DNA from: a bacterium
GTDB lineage: Bacteria > Hinthialibacterota > Hinthialibacteria > Hinthialibacterales > Hinthialibacteraceae
NCBI GenBank assembly: GCA_963662285.2
Contig: CAXXMV010000008.1
Location: 1,120,001-1,184,000, forward strand
Direction of reading: 5' to 3'
Length of the DNA: 64,000 nucleotides
Part shown: positions 20,795-47,820 of the stretch, piece by piece
Position numbering within the stretch: the first letter of the stretch is position 1
Layout of the letters: every line of letters begins with the position of its first letter
Made by a program: the position numbers and the translations under genes
Notes under the pieces: generated by a model
Database searches by the model: none
Told to the model about the DNA's origin: nothing
The model's input: the letters and a program-made list of their open reading frames with translations, nothing else

Positions 20795-21046
20795 TCACAC
20801 CGACTCCTGCGCCCCGGCTGGACAACCAGCCTTGCGGGCCAGGCCATCTGGATTGGTACCGTCGTTGGCCAGTTCGGGAAAAGCCGCAGGGGCGAGTAAC
20901 GCGGCGACCAGACCCTCGAAGAGGCGACCGCGAGCGCCGGACGGCTTGACGATGGCCGTCCGCCAGAAGCCGAACCCTTCGATCACGCCGGGCGTGGTGA
21001 GGGCGGGGTCAGACCGGCGCGGTAAATCATCGAGACCGGCCCTCAT
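20795..21046 (-). pseudogene. Probable truncated third gene of the TIR cassette
   Basis: ATGA overlap with the TIR-TPR stop; GC-rich; ends where composition switches, just before the direct repeat. Confidence 0.4.
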
Positions 21047-23801: not shown

Positions 23802-24155
23802 CGCATTTTCTCCCGTCGCGAATCCCAGTTTTGTGACCACCGGTTATGATGTAACATGCCGTGTGGTGCGTTACAAACGGAAAGGCCTTCAATCGGGATT
23901 TTCCATTTAACCTGAGAAATCTCACTGATTTTTTTAATACCATCTAATTCCCTCAAAGAAAATACTCAATGTCAAGTTCTCTTCGAGAATTTCACTCGTT
24001 TTCATGAATCCAAGGGCCTATAAATTCTGTCAATTCAAAAAAATAGACGCACTTCCACAGTTTCAATCTCAAATATTCTCAATTTATGCTATTCAAATCC
24101 GAATCATCACACTGGAATCGATTTGAGTCGGTGAATCTTCTGAAGAACCTTTCAA

Positions 24156-27092: not shown

Positions 27093-27106
27093 GAATATCG
27101 ATAAGG

Positions 27107-27517
27107 ATGCATTTAATGTCAAAACCATTTCGCCTCTCGGTTAAAGCCATCGTTCGCAATGAAGAAAACGAGTGCCTTGTTATTCGCCGGTCTAACTATT
27201 CAAAACATAACGCTGGGAGATGGGATTTCCCAGGTGGGAAAGTCGACGTAGGTGAGAATTTCGATGCTGCTCTTATCCGTGAAATTGGCGAAGAAACATC
27301 GATTGAAATTAAACTGACAGGTTTTGCCGGTTGTGGTCAATCGCAAGCCCCTGAAAATACAGTTATTTACCTTTTTATGAATGCGATGGCTCTAACCCAA
27401 GAGGTTGTATTAAGCGAAGAGCATACGGAGTATCAGTGGGTTCCTCTGTCTAATCTTCTAAATGTAGATATGGGGGATCAGTTTAAAGATATTTGTGAAG
27501 TTCTTGCAGCAGAGTAG
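27107..27517 (+). CDS. Nudix hydrolase (MutT-like)
   Basis: WDFPGGKVDVGENFDAALIREIGEETSI Nudix box; LSEEH. Confidence 0.93.
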   Translation: MHLMSKPFRLSVKAIVRNEENECLVIRRSNYSKHNAGRWDFPGGKVDVGENFDAALIREIGEETSIEIKLTGFAGCGQSQAPENTVIYLFMNAMALTQEVVLSEEHTEYQWVPLSNLLNVDMGDQFKDICEVLAAE

Positions 27518-27541
27518 GATAGATGAAAGGTTGACAACATT

Positions 27542-30500: not shown

Positions 30501-30592
30501 ATTTAGATCAAAATACAAAAAATAAGGATATAAACGCTGTTAAATCATGGCCTGAAATCTTTGCGAAAGCTGGGATTGAGATACGTCGCTAA
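27542..30592 (+). CDS. RelA/SpoT-like synthetase (duplicated)-TPR-SLOG-RyR multidomain protein
   Basis: RPKS..EK, DMCGAR, GYLSxHY, EIQVRT (each twice), QHTWA..HD..YK; TPR-like helices; GGGTTSG / NGGNITLQE / GSGRSAD (SLOG-like); PWEDL..AN and EHGRW..W..G..RD..HPD..W..L (RyR-like). Confidence 0.82.
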   Translation: MNSEKLKEYSDKYKEDLFPKFQIYSSTLECILKSIANDTDPLAFVSARPKSLESFIEKINRKGYEEPFKQMTDMCGARIVAHTIDQIDQIREIIEREFIIDQKNYVDAIERLSKNEFGYLSVHYIVQLKAGTILGIVVPNDILPNDEIPFKAEIQVRTLKLKDYLDQYKDLFPKFQIYSSTLECILKSIANDTDPLAFVSARPKSLASFIEKINRKGYEEPFKQMTDMCGARIVAHTIDQIDQIKEIIEREFIIDQKNYVDAIERLSKNEFGYLSIHYIVQLKAGTILGIVVPDDILPNDEIPFKAEIQVRTLLQHTWADTFHDRLYKNNIKKPKSLERDVARVAAILEEADNLISKETSMIDDFIVDIGAYLSKKEIEKEIDILKNVFSLDEDVKNKQNLALRISKLYRAIFEWDHIIDFLNKTNIYQSNPKLLAELGNAYCENYSLTPNDDNYDKGIKLLNESIDSNNSDPLSLSLLAQAYIRKRGENDKTKMHFKRAFELNPKNPYYFSNYLVFELSHSSFLLQPFINLAIDTCQQHIEARIELPQAYLTIGRLSLLLLNDIYTNDNKDRIEKVKMEHFINQIIENYALAIKMYLEMDSCICSSVINNEIIFIKEIKGKLSSLRNDPKKILESILFMLIIANYLKNKECPKCQVDNIELNKMKPENELPYEENKKILFVVGGCSKDISSDIKHYKPVLENILKHFNGIVIGGGTTSGISGMLGEIASKTINDRKYILLGYHPSRLGTDYTVDRDNYDVLVKTKSEDNCLFDSLQAWIDILASNIPIENIRILAINGGNITLQECFVGISFGSLTGVVKGSGRSADIILSNPRWSKMDNIIPLIDEDMTINAFVNQGQSKLNVELIDSISKCAHEKFIEHCGSEKYEKSYRPWEDLSDYYKEANRRQIRYAEVILKANGYQMVEIGDEKQVKVYSFTDDDSKRVEEMSKMEHGRWVLSKIMDKWVEGKPRDDSKKIHPDITGWDNLDQNTKNKDINAVKSWPEIFAKAGIEIRR
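27585..28480 (+). repeat. Intragenic tandem duplication, period 462 bp
   Basis: 27585-28018 is near-identical to 28047-28480 and in frame (154 codons). Confidence 0.95.
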
Positions 30593-30683
30593 TAAATATG
30601 GGAATAAATTTAATTTCCAAAAATTTACATGAAACAATAATGCATCGATAAGGATATGCCAGTCGGCATGAATCTCAGTAGTT

Positions 30684-33600
30684 ATGAGGATCAATATCAT
30701 GACCACCTCCGGTAGTGGAAAACGACTGCGACCGGTCATTCGAGTGTTTGTCAGTTCGACGTTCAGCGACATGAAGCACGAGCGGAACGCTTTGGAGGCC
30801 GATGCCTTTCCGAAACTGGAGCAGCTCTGTCAGCGTCATGGGTTTCAGTTCCAAGCCATCGATCTGCGCTGGGGCGTCTCGACTGAAGCTGGGCTGGATC
30901 ACCGAACGATGCAGATTTGCTACGAGGAATTGCGCCGGTCGCAAGAGATTTCCCCGGAACCAAATTTCCTTATCTTGCTGGGCAACCGCTATGGATGGCG
31001 GCCTTTGCCAGAAGCGATCTCACAGAAAGAATATGAAAATCTTCGCAATGCAGCAATGGAATGCGATAAAGACGGCAAGGCTATCATCAAAGGAATAGGT
31101 GACAAGTCAGCCGAACAGATACTCAAAGAATGGTATCGACTCGATGAAAATATTCTCCCCTCCGATCGAACACGGGATGATCCTGACTGCGCGCCACTGA
31201 ACTACATACTGCAATCACGTCTACAAGTTGTTGATGGGCATCTAAAGTATGGTCGTAGGAAGAAAGTCTCAGGCATGGGAGACGAAGACACGCCAGAATG
31301 GATTGCCGTCCAGAATGTTCTCTGGAATATGATCAACGCAGCATTTCCAGCTGATGCCCGTTTCAAAAACCGCTTCAAAAACATTGATGGGAACAAGCAT
31401 ATCCAGGATGTCGACAGTACACTAGACCCCAAGCGCACCGTACCACAGATCGTGCGTTTCCAGGGCTCCGCGACCGAGCAAGAGATATGGAGCGGCGCTC
31501 TTAGCGTCCCACATGCCGATCAACACGTCTTGGCGTTTTTCCGGGAGATCGAGAACCGCGCCGCCTTCTCCGATCCGAAGCAGATTGAGAACTTCGTTGA
31601 TGTGGACCCGTCCGGTACACTCCAGATTGAGCAGTTGAAGGCAGAACTTCGCCTGCGGTTGGGCAGTTCGAATCTTTTCCACAACGAGGCTCCCGTGAGG
31701 TTGGTGGAGGCTCAAGACAATCAGGGTGACCGAAGAGTTGATATCACGACGGATCACCTAGACCAGCTTTGCGCCAATGTGGTAAGCCGGCTGTCAGAGA
31801 GCATCCAGGGCCAGATCGATGAGTATTGGCACAATACCTCACCAGCTTCAATGAATCGCGCCGCTCGCGAACTAGAAATCGAACAGCGCGAATACGAACG
31901 GTTCGCCAAGGAGCGTGGCGGTGAAGAGTCGTTTGTTGGCCGACAAGTCGAGTTGCAGTCTATTCTCGACTACATGGGGAGCGATTCCTGTTGGCCATTG
32001 GTGATCCACGGCGCTTCCGGCTGCGGAAAGACCGCCTTGTTGGCGTGCGCATCTCAAGAAGTGGCCAAGACCCGAAAACGGATCGAACGCTTCATCGGCG
32101 TCGCGCCACGGTCGTCTGACCTCCGTTCGTTACTAAGCAGCCTCTGCCAGGAATTGCGGCAGCGGAACCCGCGCACAGACGTGCTTCCCACCGAGATCAA
32201 GGAGTTACGTGACGAATTCTCCCGGCATTTGCAGGTCGCCACACCGGAGCAACCACTGATCCTGTTTCTAGACGCCCTTGACCAACTTGCTGATGCCGAC
32301 AATGGCCGGCTGCTGCACTGGCTGCCGCTTGGCTCGTTGCCAGCCCATGTTAAGCTCGTTGTTTCCTGCTTATCCGACCGGGCCGATGGTGATCTCGCCG
32401 GGCAACCGTACGCCGAACTCAAGCACCGCCAAATCCCGACCGAGAATTTCATCAATCTGAACGTTCTCTCGGAAGCCGAAGCTCGCTTGTTACTTTTCGA
32501 CCGGTGGCTCCCTAATACGGGCCGCAAGGTCAGTGATGATCAGCGGGCACAAATCGAGCAACGCCTTGCATCTCCGACATGCCGCCAGCCAATCTTCCTG
32601 AAGATGCTTTTCGAGGAAGTCCGATTCTGGCATTCCTACGATCCAGCGCCGGTGCCGGGCGAGAGCGTCCCCGCGCTTCTTGGACAACTCTTCGACCGGC
32701 TCAGCCTTGAGACGAACCACGGTCCGCTGTTGGTGAATCGCGTGCTGGGTTATCTTTCTGCATCCCGGCATGGATTGGCGGAAAATGAGATTCTGGAGAT
32801 CCTGTTCGCCGACCCCGAGTACCGAGCCAAGCTCAACGAAGCCACCGAACAGACCCGGCAGGAGCTGCCGCCCAATGCCAAGCGCATTCCGATTACTCTG
32901 TGGTCCCGGCTCCGGTTTGATCTTGCCCCTTACCTCACCGAGCGGGCCGCACCCGGCGCCAATGTGCTGACTTTCTACCACCGACAAGTCGGTGAGGCCG
33001 CTCGTGGTAAATACATGAGTGGTGACAACGAACTTCGTTCCCATCGCGCTCTGGCCGGGTATTTCCACAAACAGCACAATTACCTAGAATCAATAATAGA
33101 ACAGCATGCGCATGCAAGCCACCCATCAACTATGTCACGCCAGGCAAATCTACGGAAGGTGGATGAGCTTCCTTGGCAACGGTTACAAGCCCAGCAGTGG
33201 GATAAATTAGGAAGACTCCTGACCGATGTGTCTTTCCTCGAAGCCAAGGTCGCGGCGGGGATGCTTCATTCTCTAATCGAGGATTACAACAGCGCGTTTA
33301 AAGCAAGTGGCAACACCAAAGTAAGCGAATGGAGTTCTGATCGTCGAAGTTTTGGCATGAGTTTCTTCCTGCGGGCACTGCGAAAGAACGCAGAATTTAT
33401 TTCCGATGTGCCCACAGCAACCCGAACCCAGCTAATCCTCACTGGACTGAACGAGGCCTTTGATCACAAACTCCTGGTGGGGAGATTTGCGGAAAAATCT
33501 CTGCTCGTGCCCTCGCGCGCCCCCGCAGAGATTGCTAATCCGCACTCCGAAGAAGTCGTCTCTGTAACAGCAAGTGGTGACTGCCAAAGAGTCGCAACCT

Positions 33601-35309
33601 GCGATCTTCGCGGGCAGGTTATCATCTGGGATGTCATGAAGCGACGCTGGTTAACGCGGTATACTGCAGTCAAAGGCAGAGCAGAGGTTGTCTGCTTCCT
33701 CGACCTTGGTGGTGTGCTTTTGGCTGCCGCATGTGAGGACGGTTCAATCTACATTGCCGAATCAAGCACCGGCGACCAGCGCGCAAGGCTGTGTAAACAC
33801 AAATCTCAACTCTTGGCTCTCACGAGCAATGGAACTTACTTCGCTTCCGGTGGTGTTGATGAAAGAGTCTTTCTTTGGGAAACCAGATCTTTGCGGTTCT
33901 TGACTGAAGTTGGTGAGTCCAAAGGCCGCGGTATGATTCAATCTTTGGCTTTCGGTGCCGGACATTATCTCTTGGTTGGCACCCACACAGGTCGAGTCGA
34001 GTGTTGGGATCTGAGCAGCCCTACCGCTCCGAAACTATGCTATCAGTTCAACTTGCCGACGCCATCGAATCGTTTGGGGCCGTCTAGCATTGAGCAAGTA
34101 GCTTTTGTTCCTCGGACACGCTATGCGTGTGTTTCTGACTGGGAACCGAAAATCACGATTTTCGATGCGATTTCGGGTCAGTCGCTTAATCAGGTCAGAC
34201 ATCCCGGCAGTTATGCACCCCGGTTTGCCCCGACACAGGACGGGAAGACGCTAGTCTGTTCACATGATAAAGGGTTAATGGCTTTTGCAGTTCCCAGCGG
34301 TCAACATCTGTGGAAGATTGACGCGGACATGTGGAGTATTGGGAGCCTCGTGCTGTTGGAGGAGGATCGCAGTTCGTTCACTGGACACTCGGATAGTTCA
34401 GTAGCCATCTGGGATCTTGCTGATAGAAAACGGATTTGGGCACAGCCCGGCGTCCGCAACAGCGCCATATCGGCAGCGGCAATAGATCCAAGTCGCGCAA
34501 TCTGTGTTTCCGGAGGTACCGGAGGCCAAATCAGCGCCGTTGATTTGGAAACAGAGAAAACTCTGTACCATGTAAAGACGGACATTGGTTATGTGTGCGC
34601 TTTGGATGTCTGCGCAGTAAACAACGTTTTTGCCGCATTGGGTTGGAGTCGCTACACCATTGTGGCGTCAACCACCACGGGCCACGAAACCATGCGGTTC
34701 CCGACTGCTGAATTTGGACGAATGGTTTGCTTAAATCCACAAGGTGATCGCCTTGCTATCGGGTGCGAGCAAGACCTAACGGTATTTGATCTAGCAAGCC
34801 AAACTTCATTATTCAGAACTAAAGATGCCTTAACGGCTTGGATCGTCTCTGGTCTGTTTTCGGATAATCCAGATTTTTTATATCTCGGCGATTCCTGGGG
34901 GATTTGCCACGAAATTCAGTTGTCAACTGGAGGTGTGCGGCATCTCAATCCCGGCAACAACCAGATTCGCGGTTGGTGTCAATTCCTAACTGTACTGGAA
35001 GCCCAGAAATGCTTCATTTCGGCTGCGGGTAGCCAATTGTTTGTATGGGATTTGCTGTCTGGCTGTGTCCAGCGTAAACTCATCGGGCACCGAAGCGATG
35101 TATGCACAGGTACCCTCTCAAAGGATGGAAAATGGCTGATAACTGGCGACGAGCATGGCAGGATCATCTTATGGGAGACTGCCTCTTGGAGAATTGTCGG
35201 CGGGGCATTGCTTCAAGCCCCAATCCGTGTGCTTACATTTGACCAGATTCGATCATGTCTGTGGGCCGTGGACGCCGCAAGAGGAATATATCAATTCGCT
35301 TTGCAGTGA
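30684..35309 (+). CDS. DUF4062(TIR-like)-STAND NTPase-WD40 NLR-like protein, copy 1 (intact)
   Basis: RVFVSSTFSDMKHER, IDLRWG, LGNRYGW; Walker A GASGCGKT, Walker B LFLDALD; C-terminal WD40 repeats. Confidence 0.9.
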   Translation: MRINIMTTSGSGKRLRPVIRVFVSSTFSDMKHERNALEADAFPKLEQLCQRHGFQFQAIDLRWGVSTEAGLDHRTMQICYEELRRSQEISPEPNFLILLGNRYGWRPLPEAISQKEYENLRNAAMECDKDGKAIIKGIGDKSAEQILKEWYRLDENILPSDRTRDDPDCAPLNYILQSRLQVVDGHLKYGRRKKVSGMGDEDTPEWIAVQNVLWNMINAAFPADARFKNRFKNIDGNKHIQDVDSTLDPKRTVPQIVRFQGSATEQEIWSGALSVPHADQHVLAFFREIENRAAFSDPKQIENFVDVDPSGTLQIEQLKAELRLRLGSSNLFHNEAPVRLVEAQDNQGDRRVDITTDHLDQLCANVVSRLSESIQGQIDEYWHNTSPASMNRAARELEIEQREYERFAKERGGEESFVGRQVELQSILDYMGSDSCWPLVIHGASGCGKTALLACASQEVAKTRKRIERFIGVAPRSSDLRSLLSSLCQELRQRNPRTDVLPTEIKELRDEFSRHLQVATPEQPLILFLDALDQLADADNGRLLHWLPLGSLPAHVKLVVSCLSDRADGDLAGQPYAELKHRQIPTENFINLNVLSEAEARLLLFDRWLPNTGRKVSDDQRAQIEQRLASPTCRQPIFLKMLFEEVRFWHSYDPAPVPGESVPALLGQLFDRLSLETNHGPLLVNRVLGYLSASRHGLAENEILEILFADPEYRAKLNEATEQTRQELPPNAKRIPITLWSRLRFDLAPYLTERAAPGANVLTFYHRQVGEAARGKYMSGDNELRSHRALAGYFHKQHNYLESIIEQHAHASHPSTMSRQANLRKVDELPWQRLQAQQWDKLGRLLTDVSFLEAKVAAGMLHSLIEDYNSAFKASGNTKVSEWSSDRRSFGMSFFLRALRKNAEFISDVPTATRTQLILTGLNEAFDHKLLVGRFAEKSLLVPSRAPAEIANPHSEEVVSVTASGDCQRVATCDLRGQVIIWDVMKRRWLTRYTAVKGRAEVVCFLDLGGVLLAAACEDGSIYIAESSTGDQRARLCKHKSQLLALTSNGTYFASGGVDERVFLWETRSLRFLTEVGESKGRGMIQSLAFGAGHYLLVGTHTGRVECWDLSSPTAPKLCYQFNLPTPSNRLGPSSIEQVAFVPRTRYACVSDWEPKITIFDAISGQSLNQVRHPGSYAPRFAPTQDGKTLVCSHDKGLMAFAVPSGQHLWKIDADMWSIGSLVLLEEDRSSFTGHSDSSVAIWDLADRKRIWAQPGVRNSAISAAAIDPSRAICVSGGTGGQISAVDLETEKTLYHVKTDIGYVCALDVCAVNNVFAALGWSRYTIVASTTTGHETMRFPTAEFGRMVCLNPQGDRLAIGCEQDLTVFDLASQTSLFRTKDALTAWIVSGLFSDNPDFLYLGDSWGICHEIQLSTGGVRHLNPGNNQIRGWCQFLTVLEAQKCFISAAGSQLFVWDLLSGCVQRKLIGHRSDVCTGTLSKDGKWLITGDEHGRIILWETASWRIVGGALLQAPIRVLTFDQIRSCLWAVDAARGIYQFALQ

Positions 35310-35315
35310 AACAAC

Positions 35316-35611
35316 ATGAATGCCACCTGCAAAATCGCCCACATTTTCATCAGCAGCACCTTCTGCGACATGCACGCGGTGCGGAACCACCTGTTCACAT
35401 CTGTGTTCCAGGACTTGCGGAAGCGGGTGGAACAGTTGGGGATGGAGTTCTTAGATGTGGACCTGTTCTGGGCTTGCCGGCCATAGACTTCGATGGGGAG
35501 ACTGCCAACTCCTAGCAATACTGTCGGTAATGGATCGATCGGGTCGAGCCGTTCTTCGTCCTCATCCTCGGCCAACGCTACGGCCGGGTGCCCGAGTCGA
35601 GCTACTTCCGC
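35316..35611 (+). pseudogene. Degenerate DUF4062 stub 1
   Basis: HIFISSTFCDMHAVRNHL..DVDLFW, then a frameshift and two stops, then EPFFVLILGQRYGRVP. Confidence 0.8.
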
Positions 35612-36195
35612 AACACAACCATTCAGCAAGTGCAGTTAGGAGTTCTCGCTCATGAGTGATACCAGAATACAGGCTCGCCTCCGCCCCGTCGTTCGGGTGT
35701 TTGTCAGTTCGACGTTCAGCGACATGAAACATGAGCGGAACGCTTTGGAGGCCGATGCCTTTCCGAAACTGGAGCAGCTCTGTCAGCGTCATGGGTTTCA
35801 GTTCCAAGCCATCGATCTGCGCTGGGGCGTCTCGACTGAAGCTGGGCTGGATCACCGAACGATGCAGATTTGCTACGAGGAATTGCGCCGGTCGCAAGAG
35901 ATTTCCCCGGAACCAAATTTCCTTATCTTGCTGGGCAACCGCTATGGATGGCGGCCTTTGCCAGAAGCGATCTCACAGAAAGAATATGAAAATCTTCGCA
36001 ATGCAGCAATGGAATGCGATAAAGACGGCAAGGCTATCATTGCAGATTTCGGGCCAAATCGGCACCTGAATTCGGAGTAAATCGGCACCCCATTTCGGAG
36101 TAATCGGCAGGGGGTGATTGTGAAGGAGATTTTCGGCGGAAAATTGATCGTTTGCAGCACTGGGTCAATCAAACCATAAGGGCATAGTAGGCTTC

Positions 36196-37767
36196 ATGCC
36201 AATGCGCATAGATTGGGAGAAGCCGATGCCGAAGGAGAGATTGTCCATGCGGAAAATCAAAGAGATACTACGATTAAAATGGGAGTGTGGTCTGAGTAAG
36301 AAGAAGATCGCTCAGAGTTGTGGCATGTCACGCAGCACTGTGGGGGATTATCTGATGCGAGCCGGAGCGGCAGGGCTATCCTGGCCGTTGCCGGAAGATC
36401 TGACTGAATCGGAATTGGAGAAGCGGCTCTTTTCCAGCCCCCCCGGACGTTCGCCCGTGCAACGCCCGTTACCCGATTGTGCGTTGATTCATAAAGAGAA
36501 TAAGAGGAAGGGCGTCACTCTGGCGCTGTTGTGGACGGAATATAAACAAGAACATCCGGATGGGTATCAATACACGCAATTTTGTGAGCATTACCGCCGC
36601 TGGAGGGATCGTCTCGATACCTGTCTGCGCCAAGAGCATAAGGCGGGGGAAAAATTGTTTGTGGATTACTGTGGACAGACCATCCCAGTGATCGACCGAA
36701 CGACAGGCGAAGAGAGAGAAGCGCAGATTTTCGTGGCGGCGTTGGGGGCCTCGAATTACACCTATGCGGAAGCGACGTGGACGCAGCAGCTCCCCGACTG
36801 GATTGGAGCGCATGCGCGGGCGTTGGAATATATCAACGGTTGTCCGGAGGTTCTGGTCCCCGACAATCTCCGAAGCGGCGTCAGCCAGGCCTGCCGGTAC
36901 GAACCCGACATCAACCCCACCTATCAAGCGTTTGCGGCCCATTATGGGATCGCGGTGATCCCGGCCCGTGTGCGAAAAGCCCGTGACAAAGCCAAGGTCG
37001 AAAAGAGCGTTCAACTGGTCGAGAACTGGATACTGGCCCGCTTGAGGAATCAAACATTCTTCAGTTTATCCGAACTCAATCAGGCCATTCGTGAGCATTT
37101 GCAGGCTCTCAACGACCATCCGTTTCAGAAATTGAACGAGACCCGCCGGTCCTTGTATGAATCCGTGGATCGTCCGGCGCTGCGTCCGCTCCCGGTCACG
37201 CCGTTCGAGTATGCGGACTGGAAGCAAGTGACGGTGGGGAACGATTACCATGTGGAAGTGGAGCGGCATTATTACAGCGTTCCGTCCACGCACGTCCGCC
37301 GGAAAGTCGAAATCCGCTATACCGCCCGGATCGTGGAGATTTATTGGCGGGGGGAACGGGTCGCCAGTCATATCCGCAACCATCGGCAAGGCGGTTGCAC
37401 CACGGTTCGCGAACATATGCCCAAAGAGCATCGCGAGGTTCTCGATTGGACGCCGGAGCGCCTGCAGGACGAGGCCGCGGGCATTGGCGCATTCACGGGA
37501 CGCCTGATCGAACGGGTGTTTGAGTGCAGTCGGCATCCGCTGCAAGGCGCACGAACGAGTTTGGGGATTCTGCGTCTCGGCCAGTCGTTTGGCCCGGACC
37601 GGTTGGAGCGCGCCTGTGAGCGTGCGTTGTTGATTCAAGCCCTCACCTACAAGAGCATTCGCTCGATTCTCAAGAAAGGATTGGACCGTCTTCCTCCACC
37701 CGGGCCGCCGCCTCCGGCGCTCACCATTCAGCATGACAACATACGCGGCGCTCAGTATTTCCACTAA
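36196..37767 (+). CDS. istA: IS21 transposase IstA
   Basis: HTH N-terminus; FVDY, PDN, DKAKVE (DDE); YSVP. Confidence 0.95.
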   Translation: MPMRIDWEKPMPKERLSMRKIKEILRLKWECGLSKKKIAQSCGMSRSTVGDYLMRAGAAGLSWPLPEDLTESELEKRLFSSPPGRSPVQRPLPDCALIHKENKRKGVTLALLWTEYKQEHPDGYQYTQFCEHYRRWRDRLDTCLRQEHKAGEKLFVDYCGQTIPVIDRTTGEEREAQIFVAALGASNYTYAEATWTQQLPDWIGAHARALEYINGCPEVLVPDNLRSGVSQACRYEPDINPTYQAFAAHYGIAVIPARVRKARDKAKVEKSVQLVENWILARLRNQTFFSLSELNQAIREHLQALNDHPFQKLNETRRSLYESVDRPALRPLPVTPFEYADWKQVTVGNDYHVEVERHYYSVPSTHVRRKVEIRYTARIVEIYWRGERVASHIRNHRQGGCTTVREHMPKEHREVLDWTPERLQDEAAGIGAFTGRLIERVFECSRHPLQGARTSLGILRLGQSFGPDRLERACERALLIQALTYKSIRSILKKGLDRLPPPGPPPPALTIQHDNIRGAQYFH

Positions 37768-37813
37768 AGCCAGCAGCGATGGCTGCTTTTAAAACCTGGA
37801 AGGAGACGAATTC

Positions 37814-38629
37814 ATGCTTACACACCCTACTCTGGAAAAAATGAAAGCCATGCGGCTTTACGGCATGGCCAAGGCCTTTGAAGAACAATTACAGATGGCA
37901 GATATTGGCGAGCTCCGGTTTGAAGACCGGCTCGGACTGTTGATGGATCGCGAGGAAAGTGAAAAAAACAACCGCTTGCTGCAATCGCGATTGCGCAAAG
38001 CGAAACTGGCGCAGTCGGCCTGTGTGGAAAACCTCGATCTGGCGGCGCGGCGCGGATTGGATCGAACGCTCATCGCGAAACTCATCGCGTGCGATTGGAT
38101 TGGGGAGCGCTTGAACGTGATCGCAACGGGTCCCACCGGTACGGGGAAAAGTTATTTATCTTGTGCTCTGGGCCAAAAAGCCTGCCGGGAAAGATACACC
38201 GTGGAATACCATCGCGCTCCCCGGCTCTTTCCAGAACTTCACTTGGCGAAAGGCGATGGCCGTTACGAGGCGATTCTGCGCCGCCTGGCCAAAACCGATT
38301 TAGTCATCCTCGATGATTGGGGACTCTATGTCATGAACGATGAAGCGCGCCGCGATTGTTTGGAACTCCTCGAAGATCGTTGCGGCAAACGTTCGACTCT
38401 CGTTACCAGTCAAATTCCGATCCAGCACTGGCACGAAACCATTGGCGATCCGACTCTGGCCGATGCCATTCTGGACCGCCTCGTACATAACGCATACAAG
38501 ATCGAACTGAAAGGAGAATCCATGCGTAAACGGAACAAGAAACTGGAAACAGAAAACAGCGAAGATCATGAAATCAATGAACTCGAACCAAAATCAAGGA
38601 GCAATAAGGCTCAGAAGGGGTCAAAATAA
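37814..38629 (+). CDS. istB: IS21 helper ATPase IstB
   Basis: GPTGTGKS, ILDDWG, DAILDRLVH. Confidence 0.95.
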   Translation: MLTHPTLEKMKAMRLYGMAKAFEEQLQMADIGELRFEDRLGLLMDREESEKNNRLLQSRLRKAKLAQSACVENLDLAARRGLDRTLIAKLIACDWIGERLNVIATGPTGTGKSYLSCALGQKACRERYTVEYHRAPRLFPELHLAKGDGRYEAILRRLAKTDLVILDDWGLYVMNDEARRDCLELLEDRCGKRSTLVTSQIPIQHWHETIGDPTLADAILDRLVHNAYKIELKGESMRKRNKKLETENSEDHEINELEPKSRSNKAQKGSK

Positions 38630-41600
38630 AATCAACAAAAGGGGGGTAACTCCATTCGGCCTACGGCCTCACTCCGTTACCCCCCTTTTAACGCGAAGAA
38701 TGATGAGAGTATGATGAAAATACGACCCAACGCTGCTGGGATATCAAAGGGTGTCGGAAGGCTCCGAATTAGGGTGCCGATTTACTCCGAAATGCCCTGC
38801 CGGTTTAATCCCGGATTCCCCTGTCGTTTTAACCGAAATCCGCAATCATCAAAGGAATAGGTGACAAGTCAGCCGAACAGATACTCAAAGAATGGTATCG
38901 ACTCGATGAAAATATTCTCCCCTCCGATCGAACACGGGATGATCCTGACTGCGCGCCACTGAACTACATACTGCAATCACGTCTACAAGTTGTTGATGGG
39001 CATCTAAAGTATGGTCGTAGGAAGAAAGTCTCAGGCATGGGAGACGAAGACACGCCAGAATGGATTGCCGTCCAGAATGTTCTCTGGAATATGATCAACG
39101 CAGCATTTCCAGCTGATGCCCGTTTCAAAAACCGCTTCAAAAACATTGATGGGAACAAGCATATCCAGGATGTCGACAGTACACTAGACCCCAAGCGCAC
39201 CGTACCACAGATCGTGCGTTTCCAGGGCTCCGCGACCGAGCAAGAGATATGGAGCGGCGCTCTTAGCGTCCCACATGCCGATCAACACGTCTTGGCGTTT
39301 TTCCGGGAGATCGAGAACCGCGTCGCCTTCTCCGATCCGAAGCAGATTGAGAACTTCGTTGATGTGGACCCGTCCGGTACACTCCAGATTGAGCAGTTGA
39401 AGGCAGAACTTCGCCTGCGGTTGGGCAGTTCGAATCTTTTCCCCAACAAGGTCCCCGTCCGGTTAGTGAAGGCTCAAGATAATCAGGGCAGCCTAACCTT
39501 TGATATCACGACGGATCACCTAGCCCCGCTTTGCGCCGATGTGGTAACGCGGATGACGGAGATCATCCAAGGTCAGATCGACGAGTATTGGCGCAAGACC
39601 GAGCCAGCCTCCATGGACCGTGCTGTGCGTGATTTGGAAATCGAACAGAACGAATACGAACGGTTCGCCAAGGAGCGTGGCGGTGAGGAATCGTTCGTTG
39701 GCCGAAGTGACCTTCTGGAAAGTATTCGATCTTATATAAAAAACGATTCGCCTTATCCACTCGTGATTTACGGTGATTCCGGTTGCGGCAAGACCGCCCT
39801 CTTAGCGAGAGCCTACCAGGAGATCCCTTCGAAGGAGAAGCCAATCATACGTTTCATTGGAACGACGCCTCGTTCTTCCGATGTCCGATCTTTGCTAAAA
39901 AGCCTCTGTCAGGAACTCCGCGAGCGACATCCCATCACCGAAACACTTTCCTCAGATGTTCGTGAATTAATGCAAGAATTCCGTCAACATCTCGATATGG
40001 CAACATCCGAGAAGCCTGTCATTTTATTCCTCGATGCACTCGATCAACTTTCCGAAGCGGACAATGGTCGTCAATTATCTTGGATTCCGTTTGGCCAATT
40101 ACCGAGTCATGTAAAGATCGTGGTATCGTGTTTCTTTAATGAAGACGAAAACGATCCTGTCAGCCAACCGTACGCCGAACTCAAGCGCCGCCAAATCCCG
40201 ACCGAGAATTTCATCAACCTCGACGTTCTCTCAGAGGCCGAAGCTCACTTGCTACTTTTCGACCGGTGGCTCCCCAAGGCGGGTCGCAAGGTCAGTGACG
40301 ATCAGCGGACGCGAATCGAGCAACGCCTTGCATCTCCGGCCTGCCGCCAGCCAATCTTCCTGAAACTGCTTTTCGAGGAAGTCCAACTCTGGCATTCCTA
40401 CGATCCGGCGCCGGTGCCGGGTGAGAGCGTCTCCACGCTTCTCGGACAACTCTTCGACCGGCTAAGCCTACCGACAAACCACGGTCCGCTGTTGGTGAAT
40501 CGCGTGCTGGGTTATCTGTCCGCATCCCGGCATGGATTGGCGGAAAACGAGATTCTGGAGATCCTCTTCGCTGACCCTGAGTACAAAGAGAAACTCAAGG
40601 AGGACAACAAGCGAAATCGCCATGAGCTGCCGCCCAACGCAACTCGCATCCCCATTGCGCTGTGGTCTCGGCTCCGGTTTGACCTTGCGCCATACCTTAC
40701 TGAGCGGGCTGCACCCGGTGCCAATGTGCTGACGTTCTATCATCGGCAGCTGGCAGAATGGGCATGCTGCTCTTCTTCAGAGGTGTTGACTCAGGATTGG
40801 CGTCCGCATCAACGACTGGCTGAATACTATGAGAAGCAGGTCTTTTTCGACAACTATGTCGAAGAACAGCGACTGTGTTCAGATGATGTAGTTGCAATTC
40901 CTCATCTTGCGAATGTTCGCAAAGTAACGGAATTGCCTTGGCAGAGACTGAAAGAAGCCCAACTTACGAGTCAATGGAATGAGGTAGGGGCCTTATTTAC
41001 AGACTTGATGTTTTTTGAGGCGAAATCTGGTGCTGGGCTCATCTTTGAGCTTACAGATGAACTCAGAACGGCTGCGGACACCATGCCACAACATCATCCG
41101 CAGAAGCATCTCATCAAAATCCTCGATAAAGCGCTCCGTCGGGATATTCACTTTATTGCGCGACATCGGAACGATTACCCGCAGGCGTTGTTCCAATGCC
41201 TTTGGAATTCGTGCGGGTGTCCGTACACCGAGAAGACTCGTGCTAAGGATCTAAAACACACTAGTATCGAGGTAGAGGAGCATTTGTCGTCTGCTTTGCA
41301 TGCTTTATTGGATTCATGGCGACTCCTCAAAACGGCAACCACTATCTGGTGTGAGGCTCTTCAGTCACCTGTGATCCCACCGACTCACTTGCCAGACCTA
41401 ATCTTGGAGGGGCACACCGGCATAATCATGAAGCCGGTTTTCAGCCCGGATTGCCTTAGAATTGCGACTTCTGCCCCTTTGGAAGGCAAAATTCGTATCT
41501 GGGATGTTTCTAGCGGGGTCTGCCTCCGCACGCTTGTGACTGGGGGTACGAATGGTCCTGCAGTCTGGTCTCCCGACAATCGCCACATTGCAGTAACAAC

Positions 41601-44198
41601 ATCCCAAGACAAAATGATCATCTGGGACTGGTATCTTGACAGAATTGAGAATGTTGTCGACCTACCGAGTTCTGAATGTGATGCGGTTGGAATTGGGATC
41701 GCTGTCTCACCGGATGGCAAGTATGTTGCCGTCTCGCATCGTTATGGGCTTGTTGTCATCTGCGACTTCCACTCTGGATCTGTGTTATCCCAAGTTCATT
41801 TTTCCGAGAGCTCCGTGTTTCTAATGGAGTTTTCCAGTGACGGGTCTTCGCTGGCTGTTGCCTCGTATGCCTCGTATGCCTCGTATGACTCCATGGTTCG
41901 ATATTTGGAAGTACCTTCTCTTGCTGAACAGCGGTCGATCCGGATCAACAACCTGTCATCGTGCGCGATGCTGCCTGAAGGTAATGTGCTTGCTGTTTGT
42001 GAAAAAGTGGTTGGGGAAGTTGGCTCACAAGTGATACTCTATGACGGTAGAACAGGGGTGATACGTGCAGTCGTGAACGACGGTACGTCAGCACAGTACG
42101 CAGAGCCACAATTTGTCGCATGCAGCGCTAATGGACAGCATGCTGCATTCATTCACAACCGAGGTGTGACTGTGATTGACCTAGATCGGGGCACGCGAGT
42201 CACGGCACCGATTCGCTTCGGCGCAACCGGATTCCCAAGCCTCTCAGCGGATGGCCGGCTCCTCGCGCAAACAGATTTGGACCAAGTAATGATTTGGCGC
42301 CTGGACTCATTAGAACCATCGATGATCCCAAGGCTCGAATGGGAGGTCAGAGAGGTTGCCCCTAGTTCGTGTGGCCAGTTCGTCGCGGTGGCTACTGAGT
42401 CAGATTTCAAAGGTTCCCTCAATGAATCCCCATTCGTCATACTGGAAACGGCTTCGGGTACCCTCATCAGTGAATGGCAACATCCCGGATCACGGCCAAT
42501 AGCATTTGATTGCATTGCCTGGTTTCATCACTCTGCGAAGGTTGCGTTTGCGAGTCACGGAGGAGGCCCAGTGTGGCTTTGGGGGCCTGATTGGACGAAC
42601 AACCTCTGCAGATTTGACCTAAGGGCTGCTTGCTTGAAGATATTGGTCTCTCCGAACGACGCTTGGATCGGTTGCACTTGCAAGGATGGGATGATCCAAC
42701 TAATCCAAGTTTGTCGCGCCGGGATGGCTGGTGTACGAACGCTTTTCACAAGTGAGCGCGGTGATCTTGAGGGCGGAGCAGATACGCCCCTAGCCTTCTC
42801 GTCGGACAGCATGCTGCTTGCGGCGTCCATCGACCATGCTGTTTACGTTAATGATTGGTTGGTGGAGGCAGACGAAAACCCAATTTACATATACCAAATT
42901 TTCAGTCCTGACGCGATAGTCATCCTAAAAGGTCACGCTGCCGCCGCCACGTGCCTAGCCTTCAACTCGGACGGTAGCCTTCTCGCATCAGCGGCACGGA
43001 ACAAAGAGGTTAAAATCTGGGATGTGGCAACTGGACGAGAAATTCACACTCTAGCGAATCATGCTGGCTCGGTCGATGCAGTGGCTTTCACCGACAACGG
43101 AAGACAAGTTGTCAGCGTGGATTCTCGACAACGCACTTACCTTTGGAATGTAGATAATGGCGAGTTAGTCCAACAATGGGCTGGGGCGTTTGACGCGGTG
43201 GAATTCGCAGTTTACCGCAGCCAGCCTCTTGGCGACAAACCAAGCCTCCTAGGGTACCACTTGGGATGTGAATTCCAAGTGGTTAATCCAGAGAATCTGG
43301 CGGTGAATGCAGCGCTGCCGACGCATTTCAACGACGCTTTGTTGTTTCTTCCTCAGACCCAGAGATTCATCCGATGGAATGCCGGCTTGTTAGAACTGTA
43401 TCGAGTTGGGGAGACTAAAAACCACACCAAGCCATCGGAATCCCCTTCCATATTCCGACCGGAAGTTCCTATTGACAAATTTCAACAGAGATGTCGGCTT
43501 TGTGGGCCGCACAACGGTAATTGCAGAATTTGCGGTGGGAAGAAATACATTGAGGCCCGTCACGATGTATCCCACTTGCGCTTCGAACTCCTAAGAAAAA
43601 AATGTCCTGCCTGTGATGGAACCGGGAAATGCTACATCTGTCATGCACGAAAGGCTGTCTCCGGGAAAGCTCCGCTTGTTGCTAATCCGACTGCTTTGCG
43701 CGGCCACCTGCGGCACCTACTCACCGACCAGCACTGGCAAAAGCATCTACAGACACAAAACGAATCAATCCGGGATTTACTGAATATCATAGGAACGGCA
43801 AAGAATCGGCACGAAGCCGCAGAATTACTCTCTCGATTGGATCTCCTGCAACTGTGGCTCTTGGGTCTTATAGGAGGTGCTCGAAGGACCGCGGGCTGGG
43901 ATCTCTACGATTTGCTAGGACGGCTCCGTCGACTCCAGGTACCGTTTCTTACTGTCCAAGAGGCGATGTTCTCCCTTGAAGAACTCGGGGTACTTCAACG
44001 TGAAATACGATGGCGCAATCGCGAGCCATACGAAGTCATGATCGTCAAACCCGAGAGTCACATCCGTTTTCTGTGCAATTTTCTCGCGGACATTCGGATA
44101 GACCTGAGTGAACCACCTAAGCCCAGTAGGCCCGTCGCATTGGATGACGGAGAAAAAACTGACGAGCAAGATTCCATTTGGTAATCGCGAGACTTGGA

Positions 44199-44458
44199 AT
44201 GAAGGAGCGTGAATTCACATTTCGTGTTTTCGTCAGTTTGATCCCACGATTGCGGGACGATCTGAAGACCGAGCCAGATGCATTGCAGCGGGACGTGTTC
44301 CCTCGGCTGCGCGAGTACTGCCAGAAACACGGATGCCGGTTCCAGGCGATTGACCTGCGTTTCCGACATCGTACCGACCACGCAGTGTGTCGGGACTCCG
44401 CCGGACATAGGGCGTCAGCCAACGTTACGACTGGGTGTCCGAACCGCGCCACTTCCGC
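44199..44458 (+). pseudogene. Degenerate DUF4062 stub 2
   Basis: FRVFVS..DLKTEPDALQRDVFPRLREYCQKHGCRFQAIDLR, eroded middle, remnant CAACGTTACGACTGGGTG (QRYDWV). Confidence 0.75.
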
Positions 44459-44827
44459 GGAACAACCATTCAGATTGTGAACATAAGGATTTTTACCTAT
44501 GAATGATTCCAAACAACAGGCTCGCCTTCGCCCCGTCATTCGAGTGTTTGTCAGTTCAACGTTCAGCGACATGAAGCATGAGCGGAACGCTTTGGAGGCC
44601 GATGCCTTTCCGAAACTGGAGCAGCATTGTCAGCGCCAAGGGTTTCAGTTCCAGGCGATCGATCTGCGCTGGGGCGTCTCGACTGAAGTCGGCCTGGATC
44701 ACCGGACGATGCGGATCTGTTTTCCGTTTAGGGCAAATGTCCGGTAGTTAAAATTAGAAGGTGTCCCTTCCGAAAAACCATCCGATAACGGATGGAGAAG
44801 AAAAAAAACGGAAAGGAAGAGACACCC

Positions 44828-45700
44828 ATGATAAGTCCTACCCCAAACTCTCGTGAGAGTCAACAGGCTCGGCAGGAAAGTAAAACGCTAGCGCAGCAAC
44901 TGATCAATCGGGCGGTGGAAGGAACGGGGATGAGTCCCTGGGAAGCGGAAATCCTGGTGGACGTGGTTCAGGAGGTGTATTTTACCGAACCGGGAAATGC
45001 GCCCCTTCGTTCGGGTCAAATGCGCTACGACTGTGTGGCGGCGAACGAAGGAGTGGGCAAAGCGATCCGGGCGTGCCGGATGGTGAGCGTGGTCTTAACC
45101 CTGGTGGAAAAAGACGATTCGCAAGTAGTCGCCCAATTCAGCGTACAAGCCCTGCGCCAGGCGAGAATCCTGCGCCTTACGGAAGAAGCCTTCGAACAAG
45201 GAGGCGTGCTGACCCAGGAGGATTTGGCGCTGATTCTCAACAGCGACGTGCGCACCATTCGCCGGGATATTAGGGAACTGCGGGAGCGGAAAGGCATTCA
45301 CGCGCCCACCCGGGGCCAGGTGAAAGACATTGGCCCCGGCGTCACCCACAAAGAAGCGGCGCTCCAATTGTGGCTGGAAGGCCGCGAGCCGGTGGAGGTG
45401 GCCCGCCGCCTGAATCACACCCTGCACGCCGTGGAACGCTACATCCAGCATTTCAGCCGGGCGGCGTTTCTCCACCGCAAGGGATTCGCACCGCTGCAGA
45501 TTGCGCTGACGGTCGGTATTTCTTCGGCGGCGGCGCAGTTGTATCGGGACTTTTACGAACGATGCAAACGCAAGCGGGCGTATCAAGCGCGGTTGCGGGA
45601 GTTGGAGTGTATCGGCCTTCAGCACTATCAAGCGGAGGACGAGAAAAAAGGGGGACCTTTGCCCGGAAGGAATACGAAAAGCGGAAGGAGGCGGCCATGA
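44828..45700 (+). CDS. DUF1670-like protein A
   Basis: RLTEEAFEQGGVLTQEDLA, HTH SDVRTIRRDI, PTRGQVKDIGPGVTHK, NHTLHAVERY. ATG at 44828 preferred (track start 44792). Confidence 0.75.
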   Translation: MISPTPNSRESQQARQESKTLAQQLINRAVEGTGMSPWEAEILVDVVQEVYFTEPGNAPLRSGQMRYDCVAANEGVGKAIRACRMVSVVLTLVEKDDSQVVAQFSVQALRQARILRLTEEAFEQGGVLTQEDLALILNSDVRTIRRDIRELRERKGIHAPTRGQVKDIGPGVTHKEAALQLWLEGREPVEVARRLNHTLHAVERYIQHFSRAAFLHRKGFAPLQIALTVGISSAAAQLYRDFYERCKRKRAYQARLRELECIGLQHYQAEDEKKGGPLPGRNTKSGRRRP

Positions 45701-46506
45701 AAACGCATCTCGATCACAACGCCGCCGCCTACGGCCCGGTGCAGTTCAAAACGTTCGCCGGGGCGTTGAACGCCTTCTTTCACCAGGAATGCCCTCAACT
45801 GGGCGGTCAGCGCACCCGACAGGTGCTGGTGCAGAGCGTCGTGGAGATGGTCGACCGATTCTATCCCGAAACCACGCACCTGCGTCCCGGTCAGATCGTT
45901 TGGACCACGGTGGATAAAAACGAGAAGGGCTCCTACGGCAAGAAGATTACTCAGAGCGAACTCACCAGCGTGGTGTTGGATCTGGTGCGGCCCGAAGACG
46001 CGGTGGAACGGGCCCGGGGCAAGCGCTTGCGGGACATAAAACGGGAAGCGGCGGCGCGCTTGTTCACGCAGGCGTACGAGCAGAACGGCTGCATGACCAA
46101 TGCCGAGGTGGCCATTCTCCTGAAAATCTCAGCGGCGACCGTGGGCAAATACATTCAGCAATGGGAAACGGAACACGACCGGTTGTTGCCCCGCCGGGGA
46201 ACGATTCACGATCTCGGTCCCACCCTGACCCACAAGAAAGTCATCATTCAAAAACTCTTTTTGGAAGGCAAGTCGGTGGGACAGGTGCAGAGGGAAACCT
46301 ATCATAGTCCGGAAGCCATTCATCGCTATATCCAGACATTTCGACAAGTCCTCTTATGTCGCCAGAAAGGATTCTCGAATGAAGAAATCTCCTTCGCCCT
46401 CAAAATCAGCAAGCGGTTGGCAGTCGAGTACCAATCTCTGATGGATGAGATGATCCATGAATATCAGTCTCTGGAATATCTCCTGAACCTTGATATTCCT
46501 GCGTAA
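45697..46506 (+). CDS. DUF1670-like protein B, paralogue of A
   Basis: ATGA overlap with A and a GGAGG RBS; RLFTQAYEQNGCMTNAEVA, PRRGTIHDLGPTLTHK, YHSPEAIHRY. Confidence 0.78.
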   Translation: MKTHLDHNAAAYGPVQFKTFAGALNAFFHQECPQLGGQRTRQVLVQSVVEMVDRFYPETTHLRPGQIVWTTVDKNEKGSYGKKITQSELTSVVLDLVRPEDAVERARGKRLRDIKREAAARLFTQAYEQNGCMTNAEVAILLKISAATVGKYIQQWETEHDRLLPRRGTIHDLGPTLTHKKVIIQKLFLEGKSVGQVQRETYHSPEAIHRYIQTFRQVLLCRQKGFSNEEISFALKISKRLAVEYQSLMDEMIHEYQSLEYLLNLDIPA

Positions 46507-47820
46507 TCTTGATATTCAATTGATGATTCGATGGAAGAGGACACCTTGCACGCACCGGACATAAACCCTTATTTGACAAACTGCGGCGAGCGCAGGAGAT
46601 CTCTCCCAAGCCCAATTTTCTCATCCTGCTGGGCAACCGCTATGGCTGGCGGCCCCTGCCTGAAGAGATTTCCGTGGAGGAGTTCCGCACACTGGAGCAT
46701 GCCGCCGCGCAGATACCCGGCGGTGCCGACAAGTCAGCGGTCTCGGTTCTGTGGGAATGGTATCGTGAGGATACGAACGCCGTTCCGCCCGTCTATCCTA
46801 CCGCTCAGTCGATTGAGTAACGTAGTGACGCCCGTCCGGCAATGATTTACGCCTGCGGCTTCCGGACAAGCACCCGGAAGCCATCACCAGCCGTCCCTTG
46901 CTCCTCTATGGGGTTGCCAAACAGATCCATCACAGCGGTCAATCCACACTGACAATCACAAGTTCTCATAGACAGAGCGATATTATTCAGAAAATTTGGA
47001 GATCCTTGGCGGCTTTTCTTGCTTATCTGAAACGGAATGCGGAGCAGTTGGGGTGGGATGCTGATTCCGGTGAAAACGAACGGGGATTCCGGGAAGGAAA
47101 CGATCGCTTGTGTACGCGCCGCTCAGAAATTGACAACTGCCTGATGATGTTCTCAATTGGACAGAGCATGAGGTGGCGCGCTGGGCCAATGATGTCGTCG
47201 GAGGATGGCCGGGCACTTGGTTCTGGATACGAATGTTCTCACAAGGGCTTCCACCGGATCTCAAATGCAAGCGTTGTGACTACGAAGAAATAGCAAACTC
47301 CAATACCTTGCCACCTCCAGCGCAGTGTCCGCAATGTGGCTTCGCCACCAACGAAAACGAGGAACGAGAGTTTTGTGCAATTCTATTTTCTACGGGCCAT
47401 CTATTTGACTTCTTAATACGCGCGAGGTTTTGCACTCGTGAGCGTCTCGGTGGTATGTTACGATACTATTACCGCAACGCAGCTTAATGCACTTTACTTC
47501 AGGTAAACCATTCAAAAAGTATATCCCAAACCTCAGATTGTTGACTTTTCACGACTGGAACATAACAAAACTGTACAAGACTGAATCACAAACGATCGAG
47601 ATTCCTGCTAAATGCTGACCTCAAGTTACTATTCTTCAAGAACTTGATTGTCATTCGAGTTTTTTGCCCCACGGGCGGGAGAGTCCCAGCGATTCCGCCA
47701 TCCGCCAAACGGCCGCCGCCGCTCCGTATTCGCGGGAGCGCTCGATGCGGAATCCGGCCGGTACGGTTGAGGGGCATCCCTGCTTGATAAACTCGCGCAG
47801 AGATACCAGTTGGGCGTGAG

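Follow-up and report, generated by a model that had tools for sequence, protein, structure and literature searches.

The stretch of DNA considered here (64,000 nucleotides of contig CAXXMV010000008.1, positions 1,120,001 to 1,184,000, hereafter referred to as the window) belongs to a bacterium of the Hinthialibacterota and harbors a tandem array of genes resembling nucleotide-binding leucine-rich-repeat receptors (NLRs). Three gene starts, located at positions 30684, 35652, and 44499 and all lying on the + strand, open with a sequence coding for the domain DUF4062 (now also called NIR), and the sole intact copy among them is the first one. This gene (copy 1; 30684-35309, +) encodes a protein of 1541 amino acids in which NIR is followed by a middle region (MID), a NACHT ATPase module, a winged helix (WH), and a WD40 region, according to the scheme NIR(DUF4062)-MID-NACHT-WH-WD40.

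The Pfam domains disclosed in copy 1 are arranged in the tripartite order of the signal-transducing ATPases that carry numerous domains (STAND), i.e., effector, NTPase, and C-terminal repeats, in agreement with the layout of effector, STAND, and repeat sensor that the initial annotation had proposed. DUF4062 (PF13271) spans residues 20-118 (39.4 bits, Pfam cut-off 24.7) and contains an ICYEE motif holding the glutamate E82. The MID, about 300 residues long and embedded between NIR and NACHT, matched no Pfam family, and a protein atlas search performed with residues 131-422 returned mere leads, namely eukaryotic clusters without names at 0.90-0.92 and one cluster at 0.86, 62% of whose members carry DUF4062. 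The P-loop module was recognized by AAA_16 (52.6 bits), NPHP3_N (28.1 bits, cut-off 24.8), and NACHT (27.1 bits, cut-off 26.7); the NACHT region corresponds to residues 417-567, with Walker A (GCGKT, residues 446-450, the lysine being K449) and Walker B (LDALD, residues 529-533), and both motifs are also present in copy 2. The winged helix (residues 671-784) matched HTH_NWD1 slightly below the cut-off (26.3 bits against 27), and a FYHRQ motif at residue 764 closes the NACHT-winged-helix module. A weak APAF1_C-like helical stretch comes next, followed by the WD40 region (residues 948-1523), where many Pfam families of WD40 propellers were matched; the families Beta-prop_NWD2_C and Beta-prop_TEP1_2nd are among those matching the proteins of the window.

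Three 2026 preprints show that DUF4062 is a TIR-like NADase (i.e., an enzyme hydrolyzing nicotinamide adenine dinucleotide, NAD+) that serves as the effector in antiphage systems, NLR-like proteins among them. Le Mouellic et al. 2026 (10.64898/2026.09.04.749371) renamed the domain NIR and reported a Glu-dependent depletion of NAD+ by PsAvs2; Osinski et al. (10.64898/2026.05.01.722283) described Swarozyc, reported that human TEP1 is a NADase, and pointed out that DUF4062 adjoins a NACHT ATPase in NWD1, NWD2, TEP1, and NPHP3; Ibarra-Chavez et al. (10.64898/2026.06.25.731849) described Evangelion. According to these reports, both NAD+ hydrolysis and phage defence depend on a conserved glutamate (PsAvs2 E108Q, KpSwz E97A, TEP1). 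The designation of DUF4062 as a TIR-like effector, made from the sequence beforehand, is therefore confirmed by these preprints, and, since they already assign a role to the domain, the type of gene found in the window is a known one. Residues 19-107 of copy 1 match the solved chain 11gz_A (telomerase protein component 1, TEP1; E 4.4e-11), and E82, which is invariant in 42/42 aligned relatives, aligns with a glutamate of that chain. E82 is the putative catalytic residue, an assignment taken from the preprints, and copy 1 is predicted to possess NADase activity. The only other DUF4062 match of the genome lies outside the window (locus L006, G000:C8:752694-753029, -), within an open frame of 2071 residues; its NIR is 39% identical to that of copy 1 and belongs to a more distant paralogue.

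Copy 2 is split by a mobile element. Its 5' part (35652-36040, +), coding for NIR (45.3 bits, Pfam cut-off 24.7), ends at the insertion of an IS21-family insertion sequence (IS; 36041-38844, +; 2804 bp) endowed with istA (36196-37767), istB (37814-38629), and imperfect terminal repeats, flanked by a 5-bp target duplication (ATCAT at 36036-36040 and 38845-38849) and present in a single copy in the 7.29-Mb genome. The 3' part (38845-44184, +) encodes the MID, a NACHT with its own P-loop block, a winged helix, a WD40 region unlike that of copy 1, and a C-terminal extension rich in cysteine. Once the IS and one ATCAT duplication are removed, the frame is open for 1907 amino acids, which indicates that the IS is the sole lesion of copy 2 and, as no further lesion is borne by the gene, that the insertion is recent. 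Copy 2 would have served as another receptor, distinct from copy 1 in its P-loop block and in its sensor, until it was hit recently by the IS21 element. As to its C-terminal extension, the Cys-rich stretch following the WD40 region (43033-44181) resembles a DnaJ-type CXXCXGXG zinc finger (E 0.0085, below the cut-off), and about 200 more residues without family come after it.

The third start had been counted as a further gene; in this case the gene itself did not survive the analysis. Its 5' stub (44499-44723, +) runs to MRICF, where it is interrupted by an inserted element (44724-46571, +; 1848 bp) with TTT on both flanks, and the remainder of the stub (46572-46820, +) consists of 83 codons up to a stop at 46820. 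Even without the inserted element, the frame is open for only 156 amino acids, and no NACHT, WD40, or sensor was found downstream of it. The DUF4062 of copy 3 scores 23.6 bits, slightly below the cut-off, and it reads DKLRR, with a lysine at the position of the invariant glutamate. The inserted element contains two adjacent DUF1670 genes, which are paralogous, rich in helix-turn-helix (HTH) motifs, and without a known transposase domain; its termini are imperfect inverted repeats of about 16-18 nt, and it too occurs once in the genome. A limited literature search found no paper on DUF1670, and the element may belong to a type of mobile DNA not yet described. Related copies of it may exist in the sample, as suggested by variant contigs of low depth over 45747-45855 and 46308-46383.

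Two degenerate DUF4062 5' fragments complete the array. Remnant A (35310-35659, +), of another subtype, is located directly before copy 2, its stop overlapping the ATG of the latter, and at least two frameshifts are needed to read through it. Remnant B (44163-44506, +) is located directly before the start of copy 3 and carries one frameshift; its last 84 bp are about 71-85% like the stretch preceding copy 2. Copy 3 and the two remnants are presumably dead, judging from their reading frames. The idea that such stubs might be intact small NIR-only partner genes was rejected for the window on account of the frameshifts in both remnants, and an in-frame stop in the stub of a related locus (L066) is an additional counterpoint.

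In order to compare the three copies with each other, the window was aligned to itself with BLASTN. Copies 1 and 2 match over 30723-31087 and 35676-36040 (97.8%, 365 nt) and, beyond the IS, over 31080-32986 and 38842-40748 (83.5%, 1907 nt, with an offset of 7762); copies 1 and 3 match over 30723-30919 and 44523-44719 (90.9%, 197 nt) and over 30928-31021 and 46579-46672 (78.7%, 94 nt). Together with the DUF4062 matches, these data confirm that near-identical DUF4062 DNA is shared by the three starts and that copies 1 and 2 keep a constant offset up to about 32985/40747, as the initial annotation had stated. The near-identity that it had placed at about 30744-31680 could be delimited to a tract at 30768-31661 (+), matching 35721-36040 and 38850-39423 of copy 2 with just 3 mismatches in 894 positions and a number of synonymous substitutions per synonymous site (dS) of 0.010. 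The longest identical run between the two copies measures 781 nt, and none of 10,000 permutations of the 321 mismatches gave a run above 96 (0/10,000); when third codon positions alone were considered, the run was 303 against a maximum of 52. Downstream of the tract, dS is 0.57 over 31662-31961; the P-loop block (31962-32381, +; 39724-40143 in copy 2) is 61% identical, with a saturated proportion of synonymous differences (pS) of 0.815; the following segment (32382-32801) is again 89% alike, with a dS of 0.26, and the last one (32802-32987) has a dS of 1.2. Nonsynonymous substitutions per nonsynonymous site (dN) are well below dS in this common part of the genes (hereafter, the chassis), i.e., it is under purifying selection; constraint alone, though, cannot yield such abrupt changes of dS along one alignment, which are indicative of recombination. 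On this basis, the 30768-31661 tract is best explained as a recent gene conversion that homogenized the front ends of the two genes, an event separate from the exchange of sensors. Tandem paralogues whose identity is mosaic beyond constraint, a feature of recombining NLR clusters, were recognized by dS, by permutation, and by the discordant trees described below.

The DNA likeness between copies 1 and 2 ends at 32985/40747, directly after FYHRQ. The WD40 regions, which had been described as unrelated, are so as far as the propellers are concerned (19-29% identity, best E 2e-4, a generic likeness); the description does not extend to the helical linker, since a weak protein likeness persists up to residue 984.

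The search performed with the copy 1 protein retrieved 1005 proteins at E <= 0.001 among 7993 scored. The top matches cover just the first ~56% of copy 1, with 60-75% identity, and end in WD40, TPR, LRR, TIR_2, or nothing recognized; the few named members come from metagenome-assembled genomes (MAGs) labelled Planctomycetota, Verrucomicrobia, Bacteroidetes, and others. The chassis is absent from all of the 40 related genomes searched (40/40, E <= 1e-10). In its DNA, copy 1 shows 83-89% identity to four foreign loci, L007-L010, along some 1.56 kb (31449 to ~32990); these loci reside in MAGs labelled Verrucomicrobiae (L007), Anaerolineaceae, Verrucomicrobia subdivision 3, and Parvularcula; the NIR-coding DNA is 81-88% identical to theirs, and no DNA likeness to them exists in the interval 31022-31448. 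The first half of the middle region is a local version common to both copies of the window. The P-loop block of copy 1 is 94% identical to that of L007, whereas the one of copy 2 is about 61% identical to all four loci, its flanking blocks being 80-89% identical; these blockwise identities imply that copy 2 holds a P-loop block of foreign origin within a chassis that is similar in its other parts. As a protein, the NACHT module of copy 1 is 66-67% identical to that of copy 2 and 84-91% identical to those of P0002, P0006, P0019, and P0042.

Phylogenetic trees of the modules were constructed with a quick IQ-TREE run with Shimodaira-Hasegawa-like approximate likelihood ratio (SH-aLRT) support, on 51 rows, i.e., copies 1 and 2 and 49 of the proteins P0002-P0060, after discarding those with less than 90% cover (P0006, 19, 23, 31, 40, 42, 45, 54, and 60) and P0035, which is copy 2 itself. 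The NIR-MID tree places copies 1 and 2 as sisters (SH-aLRT 100), with a long stem (0.43) beneath them; in the tree of the NACHT module, copy 2 groups with P0047 and P0055 behind a branch of 96, away from copy 1, and further rows switch clades between the two trees. The earlier proposal that recombination shaped these genes is thus upheld by the heterogeneous dS, by the discordant trees, and by the 83-94% identity of the chassis to genes of other phyla with different ends. A second local gene conversion is possible in a Gemmataceae MAG (L034), where a 213-bp tract, 87% identical (6351-6563 and 12276-12488) and located in the NACHT parts, joins two otherwise diverged neighbouring NIR-STAND genes.

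The point at which chassis and sensor are joined (32973-32990, +) coincides with the end of the NACHT-winged-helix module, marked by FYHRQ, where the likeness both to copy 2 and to the foreign relatives ends: 10 of the 11 foreign DNA matches reaching past 32600 end at 32982-32995, and the eleventh at 33037. In order to assess whether this holds for the family, 44 genes (copies 1 and 2 and 42 loci with at least 600 nt past the anchor) were compared, 89 pairs of which have a colinear DNA match reaching the junction. The match stops between -20 and +15 nt of the junction in 40/89 pairs, between +16 and +60 nt in 33/89, between +61 and +300 nt in 11/89, and more than 300 nt past it in 5/89. For the pairs whose chassis are 83-94% identical and whose sensors show no likeness, replacement of the end is, on the alignments, the sole reasonable reading. 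No close relative of either sensor turned up: the best long alignments have 19-27% identity for the sensor of copy 1 (among 112 matches) and 21-28% for that of copy 2 (among the 120 matches listed of 2566), and none of 120 chassis relatives carries either of them. The initial annotation had placed the exchange of sensors in the conserved 5' part. The unrelated ends and the recombination stand, but the site of exchange is at about 32985, after the NACHT-winged-helix module, and the identical 5' tract, being a conversion tract, shows nothing of a movement of sensors. The site just after FYHRQ is also a practical junction for sensor swaps. The sensors of seven relatives (L031, L039, L042, L043, L058, L063, and L068) consist of 126-bp (42-residue) WD40 units sharing 75-94% DNA identity, and self-BLASTN revealed no internal DNA repeats in the two sensors of the window.

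Truncated NIR 5' fragments are not a peculiarity of the window. Among 66 related loci, which were retrieved by two motifs inside NIR and are therefore biased towards anything holding NIR, about 10 (L045, L056, L058, L059, L060, L062, L066, L067, L069, and L070), belonging by label to several phyla, carry fragments ending at about residues 80-125. In L045, L056, L066 (the one with the in-frame stop), and L069, the stub lies immediately ahead of a complete NIR-STAND gene belonging to another subtype; L060 harbors three to four stubs within 2.7 kb, mutually 85-95% identical; in other cases, the stubs abut mobile genes, i.e., a transposase (L058), a resolvase (L070), and a tyrosine integrase (L052), and the stub of L067 is fused in frame to an AAA_14-DUF4143 ATPase. 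Taken with the two insertions of the window, these stubs show how often the front end coding for the effector is broken up or displaced. A costly NADase may have been selected against, mobile elements may prefer this target, or the stubs may be what gene replacement left behind.

It is quite probable, on these grounds, that the locus is a tandem NLR-like antiphage cluster of NIR NADase-NACHT-WD40 genes, built as recombination mosaics, of which copy 1 is the only working gene. The WD40 end of copy 1 would bind a phage protein, as suggested by the tested relatives; the binding would let the NACHT module oligomerize, the NIR domains would thereby be brought together and hydrolyze NAD+, and the infected cell, losing its NAD+, would stop growing (abortive infection). 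As for the history of the array, older exchanges left the blocks of 61-94% identity, and a recent conversion equalized the front ends of copies 1 and 2 over 0.9 kb. The place where the sensor meets the chassis is fixed, behind the winged helix, and relatives belonging to other phyla also pass into unrelated ends there. The anatomy and the motifs, the mosaic, the junction, and the insertions are visible in the sequences themselves; NADase activity and phage sensing by copy 1 are inferred, and any present-day switching of sensors is hypothetical.

Several observations weigh against this interpretation. When the AF2 model of residues 1-422 (predicted local distance difference test, pLDDT, 77) was compared with known folds by VIA-align, TIR domains (Z 9.1-9.5) scored close to MilB, a CMP hydrolase (8.7), and to NDT, a deoxyribosyltransferase (8.6), and receiver and flavodoxin folds scored like TIR, so that the fold match is consistent but not specific; a Foldseek search of the PDB with the same model had no match at E <= 0.001. 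No named defence-system model of PADLOC-DB 2.0.0, which dates from 2023 and predates the description of NIR, was matched; from PADLOC, the NLR genes drew nothing beyond a HEAT-ARM_XIII match within the WD40 region and one to PDC-S27 with an E of 1e-4. A scan of 30300-47600 yielded 7 promoter-like sites against 11.7 expected by shuffles and 15 terminator-like sites against 19.1; with counts below those of the shuffles, the scan is uninformative on promoters of their own for copies 2 and 3. No RNA run turned up either. In the distant pairs of the junction comparison, a fast divergence of the sensor past the domain boundary could contribute to the stop of the match. Contigs built from short reads stop at the borders of the identical tract and cannot connect it with either 3' part. 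Lastly, only one copy in three is unbroken, a state equally in keeping with decay and with a working repertoire.

The last point is the core of a rival explanation, possible though considerably less probable than an antiphage cluster, according to which receptors with a costly or self-toxic NADase are being inactivated, selection acts against the 5' end coding for the effector, and conversion is a by-product of tandem paralogy. Both insertions of the window indeed fall in the NIR-coding part (at residues 80 and 129), the two inserted elements are single-copy in the genome, copy 3 carries a lysine in the place of the glutamate, and truncated NIR fragments recur in the related loci; with two of three copies inactivated by mobile elements, the locus looks as much decaying as diversifying. 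Copy 1, however, is intact throughout its length and retains all its motifs, the chassis is under purifying selection, and the insertion of the IS is recent; decay is, moreover, compatible with an antiphage cluster rather than opposed to it. A more elaborate scenario, which we consider improbable, makes the array an active cassette store: recombination within the 0.9-kb tract would fuse the expressed front end of copy 1 to the NACHT-sensor body of copy 2, deleting the body of copy 1 and the IS in one step, so that the population would switch specificity and the stubs would be scars. The identical tract does flank the IS site, with 320 nt ahead of it and 574 nt behind it, the IS is the only lesion of copy 2, and stubs precede full genes of another subtype in L045, L056, L066, and L069 as they do copies 2 and 3. 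On the other hand, the deletion would be irreversible and copy 2 has a start codon of its own; the stubs abutting transposase, resolvase, and integrase genes (L058, L070, L052) are explained by plain disruption; conversion between neighbouring paralogues needs no function; and no recombinant joint was seen in the short contigs, which could not have shown one. Equally doubtful is the more general form of this scenario, i.e., a 5'-anchored cassette system in which front-end tracts kept alike by conversion would let NACHT-sensor bodies, resident or arriving from another phylum, land behind one expressed front end; if it were true, each replacement would leave a NIR stub, and the stacks of stubs seen in the window and in L045, L056, L060, L066, and L069 would be a fossil record of serial receptor replacement.

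It might also be argued that these proteins do not serve immunity at all and are signalling STAND ATPases with WD40 repeats, a type common in large genomes of this kind, in which DUF4062 is regulatory. The lack of a named PADLOC model and the abundance of WD40-STAND proteins in environmental bacteria would agree with this, but the conservation of the NIR glutamate, the relatives tested as defence effectors, the island location of the genes, and their patchy distribution across phyla make it a rather remote prospect. Still less credence is due to an assembly artefact, i.e., an array that is not real and near-identical 5' tracts that are collapsed or mis-polished repeats. This was checked on short contigs from two public runs of one sample, which may be the source sample and are then not independent of the assembly. 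The break of these contigs at the tract edges, which none of them spans, is what an artefact would leave, yet they run without a single difference from the last part of copy 1 into the start of copy 2 (32726-35726) and from the last part of copy 2 into the start of copy 3 (40488-44606), word depth on the repeated tract is roughly double in X2 (13.9-16.9 against 9-10 in the flanks), and each IS junction is reached by a contig, albeit with 30 nt on the gene side, one below the 31-letter bridging rule. The locus had also been proposed to be polymorphic; this was not substantiated, as no alternative joints were seen in the two runs, in whose short contigs a copy 2 lacking the IS would look no different from copy 1 around the site of insertion.

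The R-gene clusters of plants and the NLR (HNWD/het) families of fungi are known to change through unequal crossing-over and through gene conversion. The array shares with them tandem paralogues, mosaic tracts, transposon-broken members, and variable sensor ends, and many relatives of the window genes share with the fungal NLRs the highly similar internal 126-bp WD40 repeats; it differs from them in being bacterial, in having exchange partners from other phyla, and in the lack of internal DNA repeats in the sensors of the window. A limited literature search on gene conversion in antiphage NACHT genes returned fungal NLR work only. Rhs/CDI polymorphic toxin loci carry displaced "orphan" 3' toxin tips with immunity genes; they too combine a conserved recombination anchor, a variable end, and left-over fragments beside the full gene, but what is left over in the window is 5' effector stubs, and what varies is the sensor. 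The domain order DUF4062-NACHT-helical-WD40 is also that of animal NWD1, NWD2, and TEP1, after which the matching Pfam families are named; the genes of the window, however, are bacterial and lie in a mobile island, HTH_NWD1 is below its cut-off, and orthology is not claimed. Among the systems of the preprints, one of the closest is PsAvs2 (10.64898/2026.09.04.749371), with an N-terminal DUF4062 bearing the conserved glutamate, a central STAND NTPase, and C-terminal repeats; the NTPase of copy 1 is instead NACHT/NWD1-like, its sensor is WD40 instead of TPR-like, and a MID of about 300 residues is present. In comparison with Avs, no PADLOC Avs model was matched. The single-gene systems KpSwz and Evangelion (10.64898/2026.05.01.722283, 10.64898/2026.06.25.731849) share the effector domain and a sensor-triggered depletion of NAD+, but they are without STAND ATPase or WD40 and are activated by portal binding or by replication proteins.

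What is new in the array, judging from the alignments, is the gene-conversion mosaic, the family-wide junction, and the recurrence of truncated 5' stubs, and not a new kind of system; the NIR-NACHT-WD40 architecture may already be listed in the supplements of the 2026 preprints. The locus offers a clean natural example of the assembly of a NIR-bearing NLR-like receptor, of the kind described in 2026, in which an effector-ATPase chassis moves between phyla almost unchanged in its DNA and the sensor ends have no detectable relatives. NLR clusters of plants and fungi are known to evolve in this manner, which is found here in a bacterium.

The array lies in an island extending over about 16-47 kb of the window, which also harbors a tyrosine integrase, DDE and ISL3 transposases, a TIR_2-TPR gene, two NUDIX genes, and a gene encoding a 1016-residue RelA/SpoT-SLOG(LSDAT_prok)-RyR protein. 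The content in guanine and cytosine is 0.455 in the window, 0.53 in the NLR genes, and 0.30 in the RelA/SpoT gene. The two NUDIX genes and the RelA/SpoT-SLOG-RyR gene are located just upstream of the array (25986-30592) and match the PADLOC candidates PDC-S07 (2e-22) and PDC-S33 (1e-31); they probably represent a nucleotide-signalling defence candidate. Within the RelA/SpoT gene, a 462-bp tandem duplication (27553-28018 and 28018-28480), 97% identical, doubles the RelA/SpoT domain. The TIR_2-TPR gene (21043-22563, -), coding for 506 amino acids, may be another defence gene, and it adjoins a gene for a 420-residue protein without family (22578-23840).

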